From Deltaproteobacteria bacterium (GTDB taxonomy: Bacteria; Myxococcota_A; Polyangia; Polyangiales; JADJMO01): a DNA stretch of 64,000 nt. Under the pieces are notes generated by a model. That model ran no database searches. It saw nothing but the letters and a program-made list of their open reading frames with translations, and had not been told where the DNA came from. Shown piece by piece: positions 2,249 through 38,459 of this stretch (the stretch's first letter is position 1; each line of letters starts with the position of its first letter). The stretch lies in NCBI GenBank assembly GCA_022843175.1, contig JALHOE010000023.1, positions 3,011 through 67,010 on the forward strand, given 5' to 3'. The translations under genes were made by a program, and so were the position numbers.

Positions 2249-3616
2249 TTGAAAGCTCTCAGCCCCGCCGACACCGCGTTCCTCCTGCTCGAGAAGCGTC
2301 ACCAGCCGATGCACGTGGGAGGCTTGTTCCTCGCCACGCCGCCCAAAGGGGCAGGGCCCAATTTCCTCGAGCAGGTCGCCGAGCGGATGCGGCTCGCCAC
2401 CAAGCCCACCCCGCCGTTCGACAAGCAGCTCACCCGCAAGTTCGGCGCGTGGTTCTGGGAGCGCGACGAGCAGTTCGACGTCGATCACCACTTCCGCCAC
2501 TACGCGCTCCCGCGGCCCGGCCGCATCCGCGAGCTGTTGCGGATGGTCTCGCAGCTCCACGCCGCGCCGCTCGACCGCGCGCGCCCGCTGTGGGAGCTCT
2601 ACCTGATCGACGGCGTCGACGGCGGACGCTTCGCGATCTACTCCAAGATCCATCACTCGCTCGTCGACGGCATCGCCGCGATGCGCATCCTCCAGCAGTG
2701 CCTCTCCGAGGATCCCGCCGACACCGACATGCCGCCGCCGTGGGCCGCGACGCGGACCAAGAAGGTCAAGGCCGACCAACGTCCGCAGGGCGTCTCCGAG
2801 TTCTTCTCGATGGTCGGCTCGCAGCTCGAGAGCGTGCCGAAGGTCACGCGGGAGATCGCGCGGACGATCCGCGAGGTGCGCAGCGACGAGGACCGCTCCA
2901 ACGACATGCGCGCGCCGCCGTGCATCTTCAACCAGCCGATCTCCGGCTCGCGTCGCTTCGCCGCGCAGTCGTATTCGCTCGATCGCATCCGCGCCGTCGG
3001 CAAGGCGCACCGCGCCACGCTCAACGACGTCGTCCTCGCCATGTGCGCGAGCGCGTTGCGGCGATACCTCCTCGACCTCGGCGAGCTGCCCGCGAAGCCG
3101 CTCATCGCCATGGTCCCGCTGTCGCTCCGCCGCGACGACAGCGACAGCGGCAACCAGATCGCGATGATCCTCGCGAACCTCGGCACCCACCTGCTCGATC
3201 CCGCGCGCCGCCTGAAGACGATCCAACGCTCGGTGCAGCAGTCGAAGGAGCGTTACTCGGCCATGACGCCGGGCGAGATCCTCGCCTACGCGGCCACCCT
3301 GCTCGGCCCCGCGGGCCTCAATTTTCTCACCAGCGCGGTGCCGCGGGTGCAGGCGTTCAACGTCATCATCTCCAACGTGCCGGGGCCGAAGCAGCCGCTG
3401 TACTTCAACGGCGCGCGCATCGAGGGCATGTACCCGGTGTCGATCGTCGTCGACGGCCAGGCGCTCAACCTCACCCTCACGAGCTACGTCGACAAGCTCG
3501 AGTTCGGCGTGATCGCCTGCCGCCGCACGCTCCCGCGCATCCAGCGCCTGCTCGAGTACCTCGAGCTCGGTCTCAAAGAGCTCGAGGGCATCGGCGACGA
3601 GAACGAGCTGCCCTAG
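2249..3616 (+). CDS. Wax ester synthase / diacylglycerol acyltransferase (WS/DGAT family)
   Basis: 455 aa with a TTG start. It carries the HHSLVDG active-site motif (HHxxxDG) and a typical N-terminus (LSPADTAFLLLE...MHVGGL). Confidence 0.9.
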   Translation: MKALSPADTAFLLLEKRHQPMHVGGLFLATPPKGAGPNFLEQVAERMRLATKPTPPFDKQLTRKFGAWFWERDEQFDVDHHFRHYALPRPGRIRELLRMVSQLHAAPLDRARPLWELYLIDGVDGGRFAIYSKIHHSLVDGIAAMRILQQCLSEDPADTDMPPPWAATRTKKVKADQRPQGVSEFFSMVGSQLESVPKVTREIARTIREVRSDEDRSNDMRAPPCIFNQPISGSRRFAAQSYSLDRIRAVGKAHRATLNDVVLAMCASALRRYLLDLGELPAKPLIAMVPLSLRRDDSDSGNQIAMILANLGTHLLDPARRLKTIQRSVQQSKERYSAMTPGEILAYAATLLGPAGLNFLTSAVPRVQAFNVIISNVPGPKQPLYFNGARIEGMYPVSIVVDGQALNLTLTSYVDKLEFGVIACRRTLPRIQRLLEYLELGLKELEGIGDENELP

Positions 3617-17145: not shown

Positions 17146-17697
17146 ATGCCCCTGCCGCGCGAGTTCTACGCGCGCAAGACGCTGACCGTCGCGCGCGATC
17201 TGCTCGGGCGCGTGCTGGTCCACCAAGACGGACCGGTGCGCCGCGCCGGCGTGATCGTGGAGACCGAGGCGTACGTCGGCCCGCACGATCTCGCCTGCCA
17301 CGCGTCGAAGGGACGCACCGCGCGGACCGACGTGATGTTCGGGCTGCCGGGGCACGCGTACGTATATCTAATTTATGGAATGTACGACTGCTTCAACGTC
17401 GTGACGGAGCGCGAGGGGCACCCGTCCGCCGTCCTGGTGCGCGCCGTGGCGCCGATCGAGGGGTGCGTCGGGAAGACGGACGGCCCCGGCAAGCTCTGTC
17501 GCGCGATGAACATCACCCGGGCGCTCAACCGCGCGGACCTGATGACGAGCGCGCTGACGATCGAGGAGGGCACCCGCGTCTCGCCGCGCAGAATCGAGAA
17601 GGGCCCGCGCATCGGGGTGGACTACGCGGGGGACTGGGCGCACGAGCACCTGCGTTTCTGGGTGCGCGGAGATCCGCACGTGTCGCGGCGGCGCTGA
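17146..17697 (+). CDS. mpg: DNA-3-methyladenine glycosylase (Mpg/AAG family)
   Basis: It contains ARDLLGRVLV, IVETEAYVGPHDLACHASKGRTARTDVMFG and HAYVYLIYGMYDCFNVV. Confidence 0.9.
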   Translation: MPLPREFYARKTLTVARDLLGRVLVHQDGPVRRAGVIVETEAYVGPHDLACHASKGRTARTDVMFGLPGHAYVYLIYGMYDCFNVVTEREGHPSAVLVRAVAPIEGCVGKTDGPGKLCRAMNITRALNRADLMTSALTIEEGTRVSPRRIEKGPRIGVDYAGDWAHEHLRFWVRGDPHVSRRR

Positions 17698-17718
17698 GGG
17701 GCCGCCGTATCGGCTAAT

Positions 17719-18117
17719 GTGGAGTCGATGACCGACGAGCGCGCGCGATCGCCGGATCCCCCGCCGCCGCCACGACCGGGTAACGGCGCGTTCGTCGGCC
17801 TCGTGTTCGTGTGGCTCGCGCTCGACGTCCCGCTCTACGCGCTGCGCGGGTTCTTCGGGTTCGGCAACGCGATACTGCTCCTCTGGTACCTCATTTTCCT
17901 GCCGTGGATCGCGGTCGTCGGCGTGCTCGGGTTTGCGTGGGCTGTGGTTACCGCGGTGCGCATGATGTTCTCCGAGAACCAGCAGCGCCGGGGCATCGTC
18001 GCCGTCGTGCTGTGCCTGGCCACCGGCGCGCTCACGCTGCAACTCGCGCGGTGGTGGGTCTCGCCCGCGATGCGCGCGGAGCCGCAAGCAGAGCCGGCGG
18101 AGCCCAAGCCGTACTGA
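17719..18117 (+). CDS. Small integral membrane protein (3-4 TM), unknown function
   Basis: Start is GTG at 17719 or ATG at 17728. There are hydrophobic segments and a Pro-rich N-terminus. GC3 is high. Confidence 0.55.
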   Translation: MESMTDERARSPDPPPPPRPGNGAFVGLVFVWLALDVPLYALRGFFGFGNAILLLWYLIFLPWIAVVGVLGFAWAVVTAVRMMFSENQQRRGIVAVVLCLATGALTLQLARWWVSPAMRAEPQAEPAEPKPY

Positions 18118-18121
18118 GGGC

Positions 18122-18373
18122 GCGTTCGCGTTCGCGTTCGCGTTCGCGTTCGCGTTCGCGTCTGCGTCTGCGTTCGCGTCTGCGTCTGCGTTCGCGTTCG
18201 CGTTCGCGTTCGCGTCTGCGTCTGCGTTCGCGTCTGCGTCTGCGTTCGCGTTCGCGTTCGCGTTCGCGTTCGCGTCTGCGTTCGCGCTCGCGTCGGCGTT
18301 CGCGTTCGCGTCTGCGTTCGCGCTCGCGTCTGCGTTCGCGTTCGCGTCTGCGTTCGCGCTCGCGTCTGCGTTC
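18122..18373. repeat. Tandem hexanucleotide array, 42 units (GCGTTC / GCGTCT, with 3x GCGCTC and 1x GCGTCG)
   Basis: Hand-parsed unit by unit with no interruptions. It starts 4 nt after the stop at 18117. Confidence 0.95.
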
Positions 18374-18416
18374 GCGGCGAGATAGGCGCGCGCGTCAGCG
18401 AGCGCCTGACCAGATA

Positions 18417-18564
18417 GGGCCTCTCTCCGCGGGCTCTTCGATTGTGCCGTCGTGCTCGGGTCGGTCAAGGGTGCGCGCCTGCGGCGCCTCGTCGCTGCGC
18501 TCCTCGCCCTTGACCGACCCTGCGCGCGCCGGCGTGGGGCGGGTGCGCCCGCCGAGAGAGGCTC
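18417..18564 (+). other. Nested inverted repeats forming a predicted structured leader upstream of the four-helix-bundle gene
   Basis: The outer helix pairs 18417-18434 with 18547-18564 (18 positions; 1 G-U, 1 C-C mismatch). The inner perfect 14-bp helix is GGGTCGGTCAAGGG (18458-18471) with CCCTTGACCGACCC (18507-18520). The AAGGAG SD is at 18584-18589. Confidence 0.5.
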
Positions 18565-18596
18565 GGCGTGGGGTGCACGTTCAAAGGAGTCTCACC

Positions 18597-18914
18597 ATGT
18601 TGCGAATCTACGACGAAGTCCTCGAAATCATCCGCACCGTCGCGCCGCTGGTTCACGAGCTTCGCAAGCGCAGTCCGAACCTCGCCGATCAGGCCGAGCG
18701 CGCGTTGAGCGCGGTGCCGCTGCGCATCGCCGAGGGGAGCTACAGCCGCGGGAAGAACCGAGCCGCGCACTACCACGGTGGCGCGGGATCGCTGCAGGAG
18801 GCGATCGGCGCGTTCGACACGGGCGCGGCGTGGGGGTGGATCGCGCCGCTGGATCCGTCGCTCCGCGATCGCATGGAGCGCGCGCGGTCGGTGCTGTTCA
18901 AGAACACGCGGTGA
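18597..18914 (+). CDS. Four-helix-bundle protein (23S rRNA intervening-sequence protein / Avd-like family)
   Basis: 105 aa: [73 protein letters not shown]... This fits my recollection of the family pattern (xAExxxR, GSxxE). A strong AAGGAG SD lies upstream. Confidence 0.8.
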
Positions 18915-18964
18915 CCTGGGCAATGCGGCCCGGCGCCGACCACGCCGGCCCGCACTCGGCTCCC

Positions 18965-19140
18965 CAACGCAAACACAGACGCAAACGCAGACGCGAACGC
19001 AAACGCGAACGCAGACGCGAACGCGCACGCGAACGCAGACGCAGACGCGAACGCAGACGCAGACGCAGACGCGAACGCAGACGCGAACGCAGACGCAGAC
19101 GCGAACGCAGACGCAGACGCGAACGCAGACGCGAACGCAG
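18965..19140. repeat. Tandem hexanucleotide array, about 29 units (GAACGC / AGACGC), the reverse complement of the 18122-18373 array
   Basis: Hand-parsed. The inner units are degenerate (CAACGC, AAACAC, AAACGC, GCACGC). The array ends 18 nt before the ATG at 19159. Confidence 0.95.
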
Positions 19141-19158
19141 TCATGCCATACTCCAACG

Positions 19159-19758
19159 ATGTGGGACCAACGCTACGGCGAGCCCGGCTTCGCGTACGGC
19201 ACCGAGCCCAACGACTTCCTCGCGCCCAACGCCGAGCGCCACCTCCGCGCGGGCGGCGAGGTCCTGTGCCTCGCCGAGGGCGAGGGCCGCAACGCAGTGT
19301 TCCTCGCGCGCCGCGGGTTCCGCGTCACCGGCGTCGACGGCTCCGCGGTGGGGCTCGAGAAGGCCCACCGGCTCGCCGCGCAGCACGGCGTGAAGATCGA
19401 GACCCACGTCGCCGATCTCGCGGACTACGAGCTCGGGGTCGAGCGCTGGGACGGCATCGTGTCGATCTGGTGTCACACCCCGGCGCCGGTGCGCGCGCGG
19501 CTTCACCGCGCGGTCGTCGCCGCGCTCAAGCCGGGAGGGACGCTGTTGCTCGAGTCCTACACGCCGAAGCAGCTCGAGTACCGCACCGGCGGGCCGCCGA
19601 CGGCCGCGCTCATGATGACCCTCGCCGAGGTGCGCGAGGAGCTCGCGGGCCTCGAGCTGCTCACGGCCGAGGAGAAGCTCCGTGAGGTGCACGAGGGCAG
19701 GTATCACGACGGTCTCAGCGCGGTCCTCCAGGTGATCGCGCGCAAACCACAGCCCTAG
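19159..19758 (+). CDS. Class I SAM-dependent methyltransferase (TehB-like small-molecule MTase)
   Basis: The start is [14 protein letters not shown]. Motif I is [26 protein letters not shown]. The upstream part of ORF 18778-19758 is only the translated repeat (TQTQTR...). Confidence 0.8.
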
Positions 19759-19776
19759 CCGGCGAGCACCTATATA

Positions 19777-20499
19777 GTGGAGCCCGTGATCGTCATGCTC
19801 CTGCCCTCGAGCGACTTCGACCCGACGGAGAGCGCGCTCCCGTGGGACGCGCTGATGTCGGCCGGTCACGAGGTCACGTTCGCGACGCCGACGGGTGAGC
19901 GCGCCGCGGCCGACGACAGGCTCGTCAACGCGGGCTTCGGTCCGCTGTCTCCGCTGCTGATGACCCGCAAGGACGCGCTCGCCACCTATCGTCGCCTCGA
20001 GCAGGACCCGCGCTTCAACAAGCCGCGCGCGTACGCCGATGTCGACGCTGGCGAGCTCGACCTGTTGATCGTCCCCGGCGGCCACGCGCCCGGCATGAAG
20101 ACGATGCTCGAGTCCGAAGCGGCGCAGAAGCTCGTCGCCGCGCAGTTCGCGCGCAACGCGCCGGTCGCGGCGGTGTGCCACGGCGTCCTCCTCGTCGCGC
20201 GCGCCGGCGTGCTCCGCGGGCGAAGGACCACGGCGCTCACGCGCACGATGGAGCTCTCGGCGTGGGCGATGACCAAGCCATTCCTCGGCGACTACTACCG
20301 CACCTACCCGAAGACGGTGCAGGACGAGGTCGAAGAGGCGCTCGCCTCGAAGGACGACTTCGTCGCCGGGCCGCTGGTGCCCAAGCGCGACACCGCCGAG
20401 CACCCCGGGTTCGTCGTGCGCGACGGCGCGTACGTGTCCGCGCGATGGCCGGGCGATTGTTATGCGTTCTCGCGCGCGTGCGTCGACCTTGTGTCGTAA
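19777..20499 (+). CDS. DJ-1/PfpI-family protein (type 1 glutamine amidotransferase-like)
   Basis: The nucleophile elbow is PVAAVCHGV, and LLIVPGGHAP is present. The start is ambiguous (GTG 19777, GTG 19786 or ATG 19795). Confidence 0.8.
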   Translation: MEPVIVMLLPSSDFDPTESALPWDALMSAGHEVTFATPTGERAAADDRLVNAGFGPLSPLLMTRKDALATYRRLEQDPRFNKPRAYADVDAGELDLLIVPGGHAPGMKTMLESEAAQKLVAAQFARNAPVAAVCHGVLLVARAGVLRGRRTTALTRTMELSAWAMTKPFLGDYYRTYPKTVQDEVEEALASKDDFVAGPLVPKRDTAEHPGFVVRDGAYVSARWPGDCYAFSRACVDLVS

Positions 20500-20507
20500 A
20501 CTGCGGC

Positions 20508-21221
20508 ATGCGCTACGCCCTTATTCTTTGCCTCGTCTACGGCTGCTCGAGCTCCTCCACCGACACGCCCGCCGATCCGACCGACGGCGCTGCGACCGAC
20601 GAGACGAGCACCCCCTCCGACTCCACGGCCAGCGACGCGCCGGGCAGCGACGCGCCGGGCAGCGACTCCACCACGCCGGCCGACACCGCGCCGTCTGTGA
20701 AGTTCTGCCAGATGACCTGCAGCGCCCCCGCAGACTGCGTCTCGACCGGCGCCGCGTTCGACGCCGACAACTACGCGTGCGAGTCCGGCCTCTGCAAGTA
20801 CAAGGGCTGCAACTCGAACGCGGAGTGCGAGTCCACGTTCATGAGCGCGCAGTACGGCTGCTTCGACGTGAGCGGCACCAAGACCTGCGTGAAGAAGTGC
20901 GGCGCCCCCGCCGACTGCGCCGTCGCGGGCTCCGCCGCCTACGACGCCGACAACTGGGCCTGCGAGGGCGGCGGCTGCCGGTGGAAGGGCTGCAACAACG
21001 ACTCCGAGTGCACCTCGCTCGGCGCCTACGTCTGTCGCGACCTCGGCGGCCTCAAGAACTGCGTGAAGTCGTGCACCGCGCCGAGCGACTGCGCGACGAT
21101 GAGCGCCGCGTTCGACACCGACAACTACGCGTGCGAGTCGGGCGTGTGCCGCTACACCGGCTGCAACACCGACGCGGAGTGCAAGAGCTCGCTCATGAAG
21201 ACCAACTACGCCTGCCGCTGA
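20508..21221 (+). CDS. Cys-rich lipoprotein with three internal repeats of about 58 aa
   Basis: MRYALILCLVYGC provides the lipobox, followed by an Asp/Ser/Thr linker. The pattern C-x-A-P-x-D-C...A-[FY]-D-x-D-N-[YW]-A-C-E-x-G-x-C-[KR]-[YW]-x-G-C-N-x-x-x-E-C occurs three times. Confidence 0.7.
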   Translation: MRYALILCLVYGCSSSSTDTPADPTDGAATDETSTPSDSTASDAPGSDAPGSDSTTPADTAPSVKFCQMTCSAPADCVSTGAAFDADNYACESGLCKYKGCNSNAECESTFMSAQYGCFDVSGTKTCVKKCGAPADCAVAGSAAYDADNWACEGGGCRWKGCNNDSECTSLGAYVCRDLGGLKNCVKSCTAPSDCATMSAAFDTDNYACESGVCRYTGCNTDAECKSSLMKTNYACR

Positions 21222-37535: not shown

Positions 37536-38459
37536 TCAACAGTCGAGGCAGGTCCATTCGACGGTGCCGCTGCTCGTTCCGAAGCGCTCCGCGGTGTACT
37601 TCTCGATATCGATGAGGAAGCCGGTGCTCTTCGCGTTCGCGGTGCAGCAACCGCTGCAGTCGGTGTCGGCACACATGTCGTAGACGGTGACGTCGATCTC
37701 CTTGGTCCCCTGGCGGAGCCGCAGGGTCTTCATCTTGTAGCTGCCGAAGTCCTTCGAGTGCACGGCCGCGATGTTGTGCGACTTGACCCAGGCCTCGGTC
37801 TGCTTGCCGTCGAGCGCGGCGAACTGACCGGCCCACGTGCAGCCGCTGTAGGCGATGCATTCCTCACTGCCGGGGTCGGGGTACGAGGTGAACGTGGTGA
37901 GGTTGGCCTTGCGCCACGCCGAGGTGATCGGGCCCGTGTCCGCGACCGCGGTGCCGGTGTCGGCGACGCTGGTGTCGGCGACGCTGGTGTCGGCTGCGGG
38001 CTTGGTGTCGGGCGTCGTCGAATCGACGGCGACCTTGGTGTCGGGCGTCGTCGAATCGGCGGCGACCTTGGTGTCGGGCTTCGACGAGTCGACGGCCACC
38101 GAGGTGTCGGGCGCGGAGGGCTTGCTCGTGTCGGCCACCACGCTGGTGTCGGCGGCGACGCTCGAATCGGGGAGCTCGGCCGCGCCGGAGTCCGCGCTCG
38201 GCGCCGTGCTCGCATCGTCGGTCGCGGGCGACTCCGGCGTCGGCTCGGTCGACGCCGTGCCGGTGTCCGCGGCCTCCGGCTCGGTCGACGGCTTCGGATC
38301 CGCGGCGGGTGAGAAGGAGCCGGTGTCCGCGGCCTCGTTCTCGGTCGCGGAGGGCGCCGTGGGCGCGGGCTCGTCCTGCGTGGGGTCGGTACCGCCGCCG
38401 CCGCCGCCGCAACCAGCGGTCATGAGCGTCGCCAGGATGAGTGCAACGTGGGTCTTCAT
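37536..38459 (-). CDS. Lipoprotein with a long Asp/Thr/Ser/Pro-rich repeat linker and a Cys-rich C-terminal DPBB/expansin-like domain (tentative)
   Basis: LILATLMTAGC provides the lipobox. The C-terminus contains ECIAYSGCTWAGQFA...IDVTVYDMCADTDCSGCCTANA...EWTCLDC. Confidence 0.7.
   Translation of the reverse strand: MKTHVALILATLMTAGCGGGGGGTDPTQDEPAPTAPSATENEAADTGSFSPAADPKPSTEPEAADTGTASTEPTPESPATDDASTAPSADSGAAELPDSSVAADTSVVADTSKPSAPDTSVAVDSSKPDTKVAADSTTPDTKVAVDSTTPDTKPAADTSVADTSVADTGTAVADTGPITSAWRKANLTTFTSYPDPGSEECIAYSGCTWAGQFAALDGKQTEAWVKSHNIAAVHSKDFGSYKMKTLRLRQGTKEIDVTVYDMCADTDCSGCCTANAKSTGFLIDIEKYTAERFGTSSGTVEWTCLDC
38001..38099 (-). repeat. Three tandem 33-nt (11-aa) coding repeats inside the lipoprotein linker
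   Basis: CTTGGTGTCGGGCGTCGTCGAATCGACGGCGAC occurs twice nearly identically, plus one diverged copy. It encodes VA[VA]DS[TS][TK]PDTK. Confidence 0.8.

Follow-up and report, generated by a model that had tools for sequence, protein, structure and literature searches.

A PF05635 gene between inverted hexamer arrays in Polyangia: one copy of a multi-copy cassette with a covarying leader hairpin

In a 64-kb stretch of contig JALHOE010000023.1 from a bacterium of the class Polyangia (the whole stretch is called "the window" here), a 105-aa open reading frame (ORF) lies between two long hexamer arrays that are reverse complements of one another. What kind of locus is this, and what might the arrays do? 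Intervening sequences (IVSs) that carry an ORF are known from the 23S rRNA genes of Coxiella, Leptospira, Xanthomonas, and Brucella, where they encode S23p/PF05635 proteins and are regarded as selfish, horizontally moving elements; PF05635 proteins as a whole are very widespread, occurring in rRNA IVSs, as the Avd proteins of diversity-generating retroelements (DGRs), and as thousands of stand-alone genes. The original prediction for this locus was an IVS-like cassette outside rRNA, inserted into an intergenic gap and ended by the arrays as terminal inverted repeats. We conclude with good confidence that the locus holds one of the many copies of a PF05635 cassette (array, structured leader, gene) that is non-autonomous and specific to Polyangia, and the constant non-coding feature of this family is a covarying hairpin—which that prediction overlooked—rather than the inverted arrays.

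A multi-copy cassette with a covarying leader hairpin

The genes related to the 105-aa ORF are confined to Polyangia, Nannocystaceae, and other Myxococcota metagenome-assembled genomes (MAGs), with 46 loci in Polyangia and Nannocystaceae MAGs and at least 10 copies in a single megabase-scale assembly. Their shared layout is a tandem array, a leader of ~250 nt with a long hairpin, and then the gene, the core measuring ~0.6 kb. Nine paralogous loci of one MAG delimit the unit: they share 76–94% nucleotide identity over a discrete 570–590 nt, which runs from 250–280 nt upstream of the ATG to the stop codon or ~40 nt past it. Even the pair at 94% (L016 and L027) has unrelated flanks, the left limit of the shared unit being the array/leader junction, and neighboring genes differ at every locus examined. 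Copying of the cassette to many unrelated intergenic sites is well supported, and no reverse transcriptase (RT), transposase, or integrase recurs among the called neighbors of six family members. At about one-fifth of loci, two family genes stand in convergent orientation, 25–250 nt apart and each with its own leader, the partner usually being a more divergent paralogue (Table 1).

Membership of the ORF in the four-helix-bundle family of IVS proteins and Avd is secure despite sub-threshold scores against both curated hidden Markov models (PF05635, 23.6 bits vs. a gathering threshold of 33.8, E 6e-5; TIGR02436, 21.2 bits vs. a cut-off of 24, E 2.5e-4). The ORF has 131 homologues in the database, and ~110 of the 120 listed carry a precomputed PF05635 assignment (E down to 1e-27, 45–54% identity). 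A profile of the subfamily matches Xcc0516, a PF05635 protein of solved structure (PDB entry 2GSC), at E 2.9e-5 over residues 9–101; the P-x-x-I-A-E-G motif is aligned, with a 15-residue segment of the ORF opposite IPSNIAEGAARRS of 2GSC. The AlphaFold2 (AF2) monomer model (predicted local distance difference test score, pLDDT, 96) has helices at residues 3–25, 27–48, 52–78, and 87–102, the second of which holds the conserved P-x-N/R-I-A-E-G motif, and the best Foldseek matches of the model are 2GSC, 2RLD ("S23 ribosomal protein family"), and Avd (4DWL/8UB7), at template-modeling (TM) scores of 0.66–0.72. The predicted IVS/Avd identity is thus upheld by homologues, profile match, and predicted fold, its one failing being that both curated cut-offs are missed. 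Residues invariant in the subfamily (AEGSY-RG-NR--YH) suggest selection acting on the gene; some copies (L173, L083) have decayed. A genome scan with the single protein gave one match, at 37%, and a metagenome scan gave relatives at ≤55% identity only.

The hairpin lies between the array and the Shine–Dalgarno (SD) sequence in nearly all copies, its motif being present in 57 of 81 upstream regions and variants of it in most of the others. At its base is a covarying outer stem (e.g., GCCGCCG/CGGCGGC, ACCUCCG/CGGAGGU, AGCUGCG/CGCAGCU), above which a near-invariant UGCUCGG stands opposite CCUGCGCG with a conserved U–G pair, one mismatch, and one bulge. A 12-bp stem follows (GGTCGGTCAAGGG / CCCTTGACCGACC), the outer positions of which covary freely, and the apex is very variable in length and often holds further CCGUGCUCG / CUGCGCGCGG modules. 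The small GC hairpin that adjoins the array in the window likewise has equivalents in paralogues (GCGCGTCGGCTTCGCCTCGCGCGC).

Covariation in the long hairpin is extensive. In a core alignment of 41 sequences, 93.2% of cells are paired, vs. 78.9% in column shuffles and 30–45% with slid partners; compensatory changes occur in 11 of the 25 pairs, and 120 cells are changed on both sides where 37 are expected, a value that none of 500 shuffles reached. The covariance model built from this core has a single strong match in the window, and across ~1.45 Mb of control DNA its strong matches fall only beside intact or decayed copies of the gene. None of the 4227 models of Rfam 15 matches the hairpin at gathering threshold; within 17500–19800 the only Rfam matches are to flpD, inside the arrays and at chance level (E > 3).

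Some loci vary the layout. At L173 (1150–1860, minus strand) the module is iterated in tandem as a GAACGC-type array, hairpin, decayed four-helix-bundle gene, second array, and truncated hairpin, the decayed gene reading MLRIYRVALDVV and then running out of frame. The leader module (small plus long hairpin) stands in three tandem copies before one gene at L013 (~2260–3000). A type I CRISPR-Cas-like cluster (WYL regulator, Cas3-like helicase, Cas_GSU0053) has a family copy directly upstream at L285/L286 (8001–8324), and the two assemblies have different genes called just downstream of the cassette.

Table 1. Features of the locus in the window (positions in the window) and loci elsewhere that are discussed in the text. 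MFE, minimum free energy; SAM, S-adenosylmethionine.
Feature	Position or loci	Strand	Remarks
Methylpurine-DNA glycosylase gene	17146-17697	+	Precedes 132-aa ORF
Context ORF, 132 aa, hydrophobic, no firm family	17719-18117	+	Stop 18115-18117, 4 nt before left array
Left tandem array	18122-18376	.	42 hexamers GCGTTC/GCGTCT and variants, plus 3 extra bases; pyrimidine-rich on gene strand
Spacer, array to hairpin	18377-18441	+	Small GC hairpin 18385-18406 adjoining array; 5' half of outer stem
Outer stem, 5' half, GGGCCTCTCTC	18417-18427	+	Pairs with 18554-18564 (sequence, MFE); encloses conserved hairpin
Sigma-70-like promoter match, TTGACC-16 nt-CACAAT	18468 to 18441	-	Inside 5' arm of hairpin; faces left array
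Conserved long leader hairpin	18442-18534	+	Covariance model R1: 61.2 bits, E 2.8e-13
Outer stem, 3' half, GAGAGAGGCTC	18554-18564	+	Pairs with 18417-18427 (sequence, MFE)
Shine-Dalgarno AAGGAG	18584-18589	+	7 nt before ATG; conserved in family
Four-helix-bundle protein gene, 105 aa, PF05635/TIGR02436 family (IVS protein, Avd-like)	18597-18914	+	HMM, homologues, profile, AF2 model
Right tandem array	18965-19140	.	~29 hexamers AGACGC/GAACGC and variants; reverse complement of left; starts 50 nt past stop codon
SAM-dependent methyltransferase gene	19159-19758	+	ATG 18 nt after right array
Composite palindromes	L176 3700-4120; L178 6480-6800; L284 5500-5880; L225		
Convergent-pair loci	L003, L006, L021, L034, L040, L045, L048, L057, L059, L062, L063, L069, L075, L195		

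Arrays at the locus and across the family

The array pair in the window is largely as it was first described. A recount of 18122–18373 returned exactly the 42 unbroken hexamers claimed (25 GCGTTC, 13 GCGTCT, 3 GCGCTC, and 1 GCGTCG; bounds of 18121–18376 in Tandem Repeats Finder, all array lengths being those of the assembly). For the right array, claimed as ~29 exact reverse complements, the number stands and the exactness does not: read in register from 18965 it holds 29.3 hexamers (14 AGACGC, 10 GAACGC, 2 AAACGC, and 1 each of CAACGC, AAACAC, and GCACGC), of which 24 are exactly reverse-complementary to one or other main unit of the left array and the other 5 are variants. Tandem Repeats Finder detects no long period-6 arrays in the window besides these two. 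As proposed, they can pair over ~170 nt in many registers, the best inverted pairing extending over 172 nt at 89% complementarity (18140–18311 with 18967–19138), with >25 alternatives. The MFE of 18100–19160 as RNA is −700 kcal/mol, including 161 array-to-array base pairs that place the ORF and its SD in the loop, vs. −549 ± 8 kcal/mol for 25 dinucleotide shuffles (z ~ −18) and −562 kcal/mol when the right array is reverse-complemented.

Across the family, arrays are concentrated between −400 and −200 relative to the start codon (3.3/kb vs. a background of ~0.2/kb, i.e., ~15-fold enriched), with a median of 214 nt between array end and ATG (interquartile range 172–257 nt). They abut the left homology boundary of the cassette and range among paralogues from 2–3 degenerate units to ~50. 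The repeat unit is lineage-specific (GGGCGA, GGGAGC, GGGCGT, AGCGGT, CCGGTT, or GAACGC, as well as 7-, 12-, 13-, 18-, and 19-mers). L005 and L055, both from metagenome assemblies, have 98.7% identity over 6.3 kb; their sole indel, of 36 nt, equals the copy-number difference in a downstream 12-mer array and may also be an effect of assembly. That the unit differs by lineage and that copy number changes quickly are both well supported. Arrays are moreover purine-rich on the gene strand (41 of 51, p 1.5e-5). A coding function for the arrays was considered and is unlikely, as units of 7, 13, and 19 nt occur in relatives and length varies freely.

Matched inverted arrays recur in two to three other lineages. 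Arrays of the same unit bracket the gene in inverted orientation in L005/L055, L060, and L083 (all GGGAGC/GCTCCC) and in L074 (a 19-mer), with inverted alignment scores of 49 (L005), 56 (L060), 48 (L083), and 42.5 (L074), vs. 124.5 in the window; the units are unrelated between lineages. L055 and L060 share 82% identity over 1134 nt comprising left array, leader, ORF, and right array, and their flanks are unrelated; in this lineage, therefore, the array-bracketed unit was copied whole.

The leader holds a further conserved element. The sole sigma-70-like match in 17600–19400 (0.1 expected) is on the minus strand, directed outward at the left array, and no sense-strand sigma-70 promoter was found in this interval. 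Over 44 distinct leaders the −35 box keeps T1 in 37, G3 in 38, A4 in 38, and C5 in 35, the −10 box keeps A2 in 39 and T6 in 37, and the spacing is fixed at 16 nt, against a background of 70% GC. The remaining −10 positions vary; apart from A2 and T6 this box is weak (a mean of 2.8 of 6 matches), and the A-N-N-N-T pattern is strand-symmetric. Judged by its sequence, the element is a putative promoter. A sigma-54 promoter in the leader was also considered and rejected, the GG/GC spacing being off by 2–3 nt at both candidate sites.

The cassette lies in a string of genes on one strand—glycosylase, 132-aa ORF, cassette gene, and methyltransferase—and fills the intergenic gap exactly, as the original prediction had it. 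No terminator-like site was found in 17600–19400. That prediction had also excluded rRNA, RT, and a DGR-type pair of template and variable repeats (TR/VR) from the window. The window indeed has no rRNA or tRNA and no Rfam family at threshold, and it has no TR/VR-like pair, i.e., no dispersed near-identical direct repeat of ≥45 nt, direct repeats other than the arrays and coding tandem repeats being chance-level matches of 60–76% identity. As for RT, no RT Pfam domain was found among the called genes within 5–8 kb of six family members, the ORFs of the window having been scanned in part. Coding tandem repeats elsewhere in the window comprise ~2.5 copies of a 171-nt repeat at 20700–21215, in a secreted-looking Cys-rich protein with a repeated C-x-S-G-x-C-x-Y-x-G-C-N motif, and apparently coding repeats of 33 and 66 nt at 37956–38113 (~3.4 copies, 88% matches) with a perfect 15-nt repeat (×2.6) adjoining.

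Proposed IVS-like processing and its rivals

What, then, does the inverted pair mean for the copy in the window? The explanation that we consider best overall, at a probability of about one half, is a Polyangia cassette copy whose array stem is processed in the manner of an IVS, and the processing mechanism itself is proposed with modest confidence. Because the genes are co-directional and without terminator-like sites between them, read-through RNA would pair the arrays into a duplex of ~160–170 bp closing a loop that contains leader and ORF, which is how a 23S IVS with an ORF is arranged. RNase III would then cut the duplex, freeing the cassette RNA and separating the neighboring messages. 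The conserved hairpin may be recognized by a partner with sequence specificity, and the simplest candidate is the cassette's own four-helix-bundle protein, on the analogy of Avd, which functions within an RNA–protein complex in the solved DGR structure 8UB7. Such binding could serve autoregulation or the formation of a ribonucleoprotein (RNP).

Several observations weigh against this reading, most of them from the family at large. Most copies carry an upstream array only, the inverted pair being a minority state, and flanking inverted repeats that form a stem around a sense ORF, found in the window, occur family-wide at only ~5 of ~60 informative loci. In the 39 loci with sufficient flanking sequence, inverted similarity between the two flanks is on a par with the direct control (median best Smith–Waterman scores of 12.5 and 12.0), and we therefore rejected inverted flanks as a family rule. 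Direct arrays of the same unit are about as frequent as inverted ones (L022, L084, L173, L051, and the convergent pairs L059 and L195), and L084, with direct arrays, is the closest relative compared at the DNA level (70% protein identity). In the window itself, the left array is pyrimidine-rich on the gene strand and so belongs to the minority of 10 in 51, and given the conserved minus-strand element it may be transcribed in the opposite direction. The hairpin speaks for neither strand: its conserved U–G pair favors sense folding, A–C mismatches elsewhere outnumber G–U pairs (15 vs. 6), and these counts are ambiguous as to strand. We also tried to derive the downstream inverted array from the array of a lost convergent partner, and rejected this, as convergent pairs usually have unrelated units and, where these match, the arrays are direct on the chromosome.

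Nor did an empty site emerge when the methyltransferase was used as an anchor. Its best orthologues (~70% identity) are in Polyangiaceae MAGs and so assign the window (70% GC) to Polyangia; they have neither array nor cassette upstream, and they are not syntenic (glycosylase, 132-aa ORF, and a 240-aa ORF are not nearby), so that no clean empty site is available and the comparison shows only that the arrays are not a feature of the methyltransferase. Evidence that the unit is mobile or copied thus comes from the boundaries of the paralogues and from the L055/L060 unit. Accordingly, a discrete multi-copy unit and an IVS topology survive from the originally proposed inserted cassette, while an empty site is lacking and the inverted arrays do not define the ends; their role as terminal repeats of the element is contradicted by equal inverted and direct flank scores and by the commonness of single and direct arrays.

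The remaining contrary points concern arrays that lie apart from the gene, and they favor an account in which the arrays are ordinary fast-evolving microsatellites or palindromes of GC-rich Myxococcota, the inverted pair of the window has no function, and the cassette merely adjoins arrays or landed in an existing array or array-armed palindrome. A scan of representative genomes for (GCGTTC)4 found arrays of at least four units at ≥120 loci in many genomes; 4 of the 120 listed loci are near a family gene and 116 are without one, so that arrays of this unit occur mostly apart from the gene. The Myxococcaceae MAG JBGART01 has composite intergenic palindromes with tandem arrays as arms, several per genome, each arm being ordered as a (GCTGCGG)n 7-mer array, spacer, (GCGTTC)4, and G-rich block, mirrored about an ORF-less loop of ~100 nt. 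Array-armed inverted repeats are on this evidence a broader feature of Myxococcota, which makes a neutral origin plausible. Direct and inverted same-unit pairs both flank cassettes, as insertion into an array or palindrome would give, and the convergent gene pairs L059 and L195 lie within arrays that are direct on the chromosome. Neutrality fits less well with the ~15-fold positional enrichment of arrays at a constant distance before the gene start, the 41:10 polarity bias relative to the gene, the contiguity of array and left homology boundary, and the whole copying of an array-bracketed unit in one lineage; in addition, complementarity in the window does not reach beyond the arrays, whereas in the ORF-less palindromes the mirror symmetry is extended. 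On balance we regard a neutral by-product as possible, if somewhat doubtful.

Two further accounts would give the upstream array a regulatory or RNA-coding part, and we consider each of them unlikely. As a contingency locus, the array would be a hypermutable promoter-region tract whose copy number tunes or switches the four-helix-bundle gene or a divergent transcript, which would give at least 10 paralogues independent on/off or rheostat behavior. The spread from 2–3 to ~50 units among paralogues, the copy-number difference between near-identical loci, and the fixed position just upstream of the leader all fit, as do the heptamers upstream of S23p that vary among Coxiella strains (PMC4990558) and the otherwise low content of short tandem repeats (STRs) in bacterial genomes (PMC12699852). 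Arrays of 60–330 nt are, however, far longer than classical phase-variable promoter tracts, a sense promoter was not found, and downstream arrays are left unexplained. Alternatively, the minus-strand element would transcribe the array into a hexamer-repeat RNA that acts with the Avd-like protein; the RNA of both window arrays would then have the sequence (GAACGC/AGACGC)n, that of the left coming from the minus-strand promoter and that of the right from the sense transcript. The rarity of such a match in 1.8 kb and the retention of A2/T6 and of TTGAC in ~85% of leaders argue for a divergent RNA of this kind, and so does the place of Avd in the RNA–protein complex of DGR structures. A −35 element would moreover explain the invariant GTC.AGG within an otherwise covarying stem, and an outward promoter the polarity bias of the arrays. 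Yet the −10 box is weak and symmetric as described, no terminator or defined 3' end was found, and one-fifth of arrays, including that of the window, have the opposite polarity.

A further view, which we regard as quite improbable, is that the cassette forms a two-component module complete in itself and is related, as a free-living form, to the rRNA IVSs that carry ORFs. An outward leader promoter would yield the array repeat RNA, and this RNA, the hairpin, or both would form an RNP with the Avd-like protein, whose solved relatives are pentameric; the unit would spread as a mobile element that is non-autonomous, and the copying process would make or extend its array ends, possibly through reiterative synthesis by a polymerase or RT acting in trans. 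A DNA transposon, or an element like a miniature inverted-repeat transposable element (MITE) that uses the hexamer arrays as terminal inverted repeats for a transposase encoded elsewhere, appears more doubtful still. Discrete boundaries, many copies, and the wholly copied array-bracketed unit would suit it, but most copies have no second array and several have direct ones, no target-site duplication is visible at the outer ends of the window arrays, no mobility gene recurs among the called neighbors noted above, and a divergence of 6–24% between paralogues speaks against a recent burst. Terminal inverted repeats on every copy, a hallmark of such elements, are thus not what this family has. That the arrays, or their lengths or orientation, come from misassembled low-complexity reads is very improbable indeed: the short-read contigs of many relatives do break within comparable arrays (L056, L057, L069, L084) and an array of 252 nt exceeds a typical short read, but the two units are ordered irregularly and without periodicity, which is not expected of a collapsed repeat, arrays of 100–330 nt stand at the same position in contigs of 0.8–7 Mb, and the arrangement recurs in independent assemblies.

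Known systems and wider meaning

The reading that we prefer, a Polyangia cassette whose window copy would be processed like an IVS, takes its model from 23S rRNA, and the likeness is partial. The IVS of Coxiella has the S23p ORF in the loop of an inverted-repeat stem, inside which RNase III cuts, and variable tandem heptamers (GACAGAT, 2–3 copies, differing between strains) lie just upstream of that ORF (PMC4990558). The cassette resembles such IVSs in encoding the same protein family in the sense orientation, in placing its ORF in the loop of a long flanking-repeat stem, and, as in Coxiella, in having short variable tandem repeats just upstream of the ORF. It differs in lying between protein-coding genes rather than in helix 25 or 45 of rRNA, in having as arms microsatellite arrays (absent or direct in most members) rather than unique inverted repeats, and in that the constant non-coding part of its family is a separate upstream hairpin; its gene has a strong SD, whereas the Coxiella ORF appears untranslated. 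With the Avd of DGRs the cassette protein shares a fold (TM ~0.7 to 4DWL and 8UB7), and Avd works bound to structured RNA that is encoded beside its own gene. Here, however, the window has no TR/VR pair, relatives have no RT among their called neighbors, identity to Avd is ~10%, and the genes are dispersed solitary copies, at least 10 per genome.

Other comparisons hold in part as well. Like contingency loci, the cassette has a hypermutable tandem repeat directly upstream of a gene, with copy numbers that differ between near-identical loci, but its tracts (10–50 hexamers, or 7-, 12-, 13-, 18-, and 19-mers) are much longer than classical ones, precede a structured leader of 250 nt instead of lying within the ORF or between −35 and −10, and sometimes occur on both sides of the gene. 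As a short, non-autonomous, multi-copy intergenic unit it recalls repetitive extragenic palindromes (REPs), bacterial interspersed mosaic elements (BIMEs), and MITE-like repeats, and its imperfect hairpin with conserved base and variable apex is in outline like an integron attC site. It differs from all of these in carrying a conserved protein gene and in having no RAYT, integrase, or transposase associated, and from integron cassettes also in that it has no attC R-box consensus and its copies are solitary and dispersed, not arrayed at attI.

In Rfam and in the open-access literature we found no description of the cassette, its hairpin, its association with arrays, or an array stem outside rRNA. 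While the protein family, IVSs, and bacterial simple sequence repeats are already known, the cassette, the hairpin, and the long-array association are thus apparently undescribed. Long hexamer arrays and array-armed palindromes emerge as a feature of the intergenic DNA of Myxococcota, in a domain that is generally STR-poor.

To our knowledge, PF05635 proteins have no established function outside DGRs, and where ORF-bearing IVSs come from and how they move has been an open question since the 1990s. The cassette gives stand-alone PF05635 genes a candidate RNA partner and a defined unit in which to study mobility and processing. In some copies the flanking array stem recreates the IVS topology outside rRNA, and copies with no, direct, or inverted second arrays form a natural comparison for IVS-like processing on mRNAs. 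If the two-component view were true, S23p-type IVSs would have their origin in cassettes of this kind that inserted into rRNA helices.

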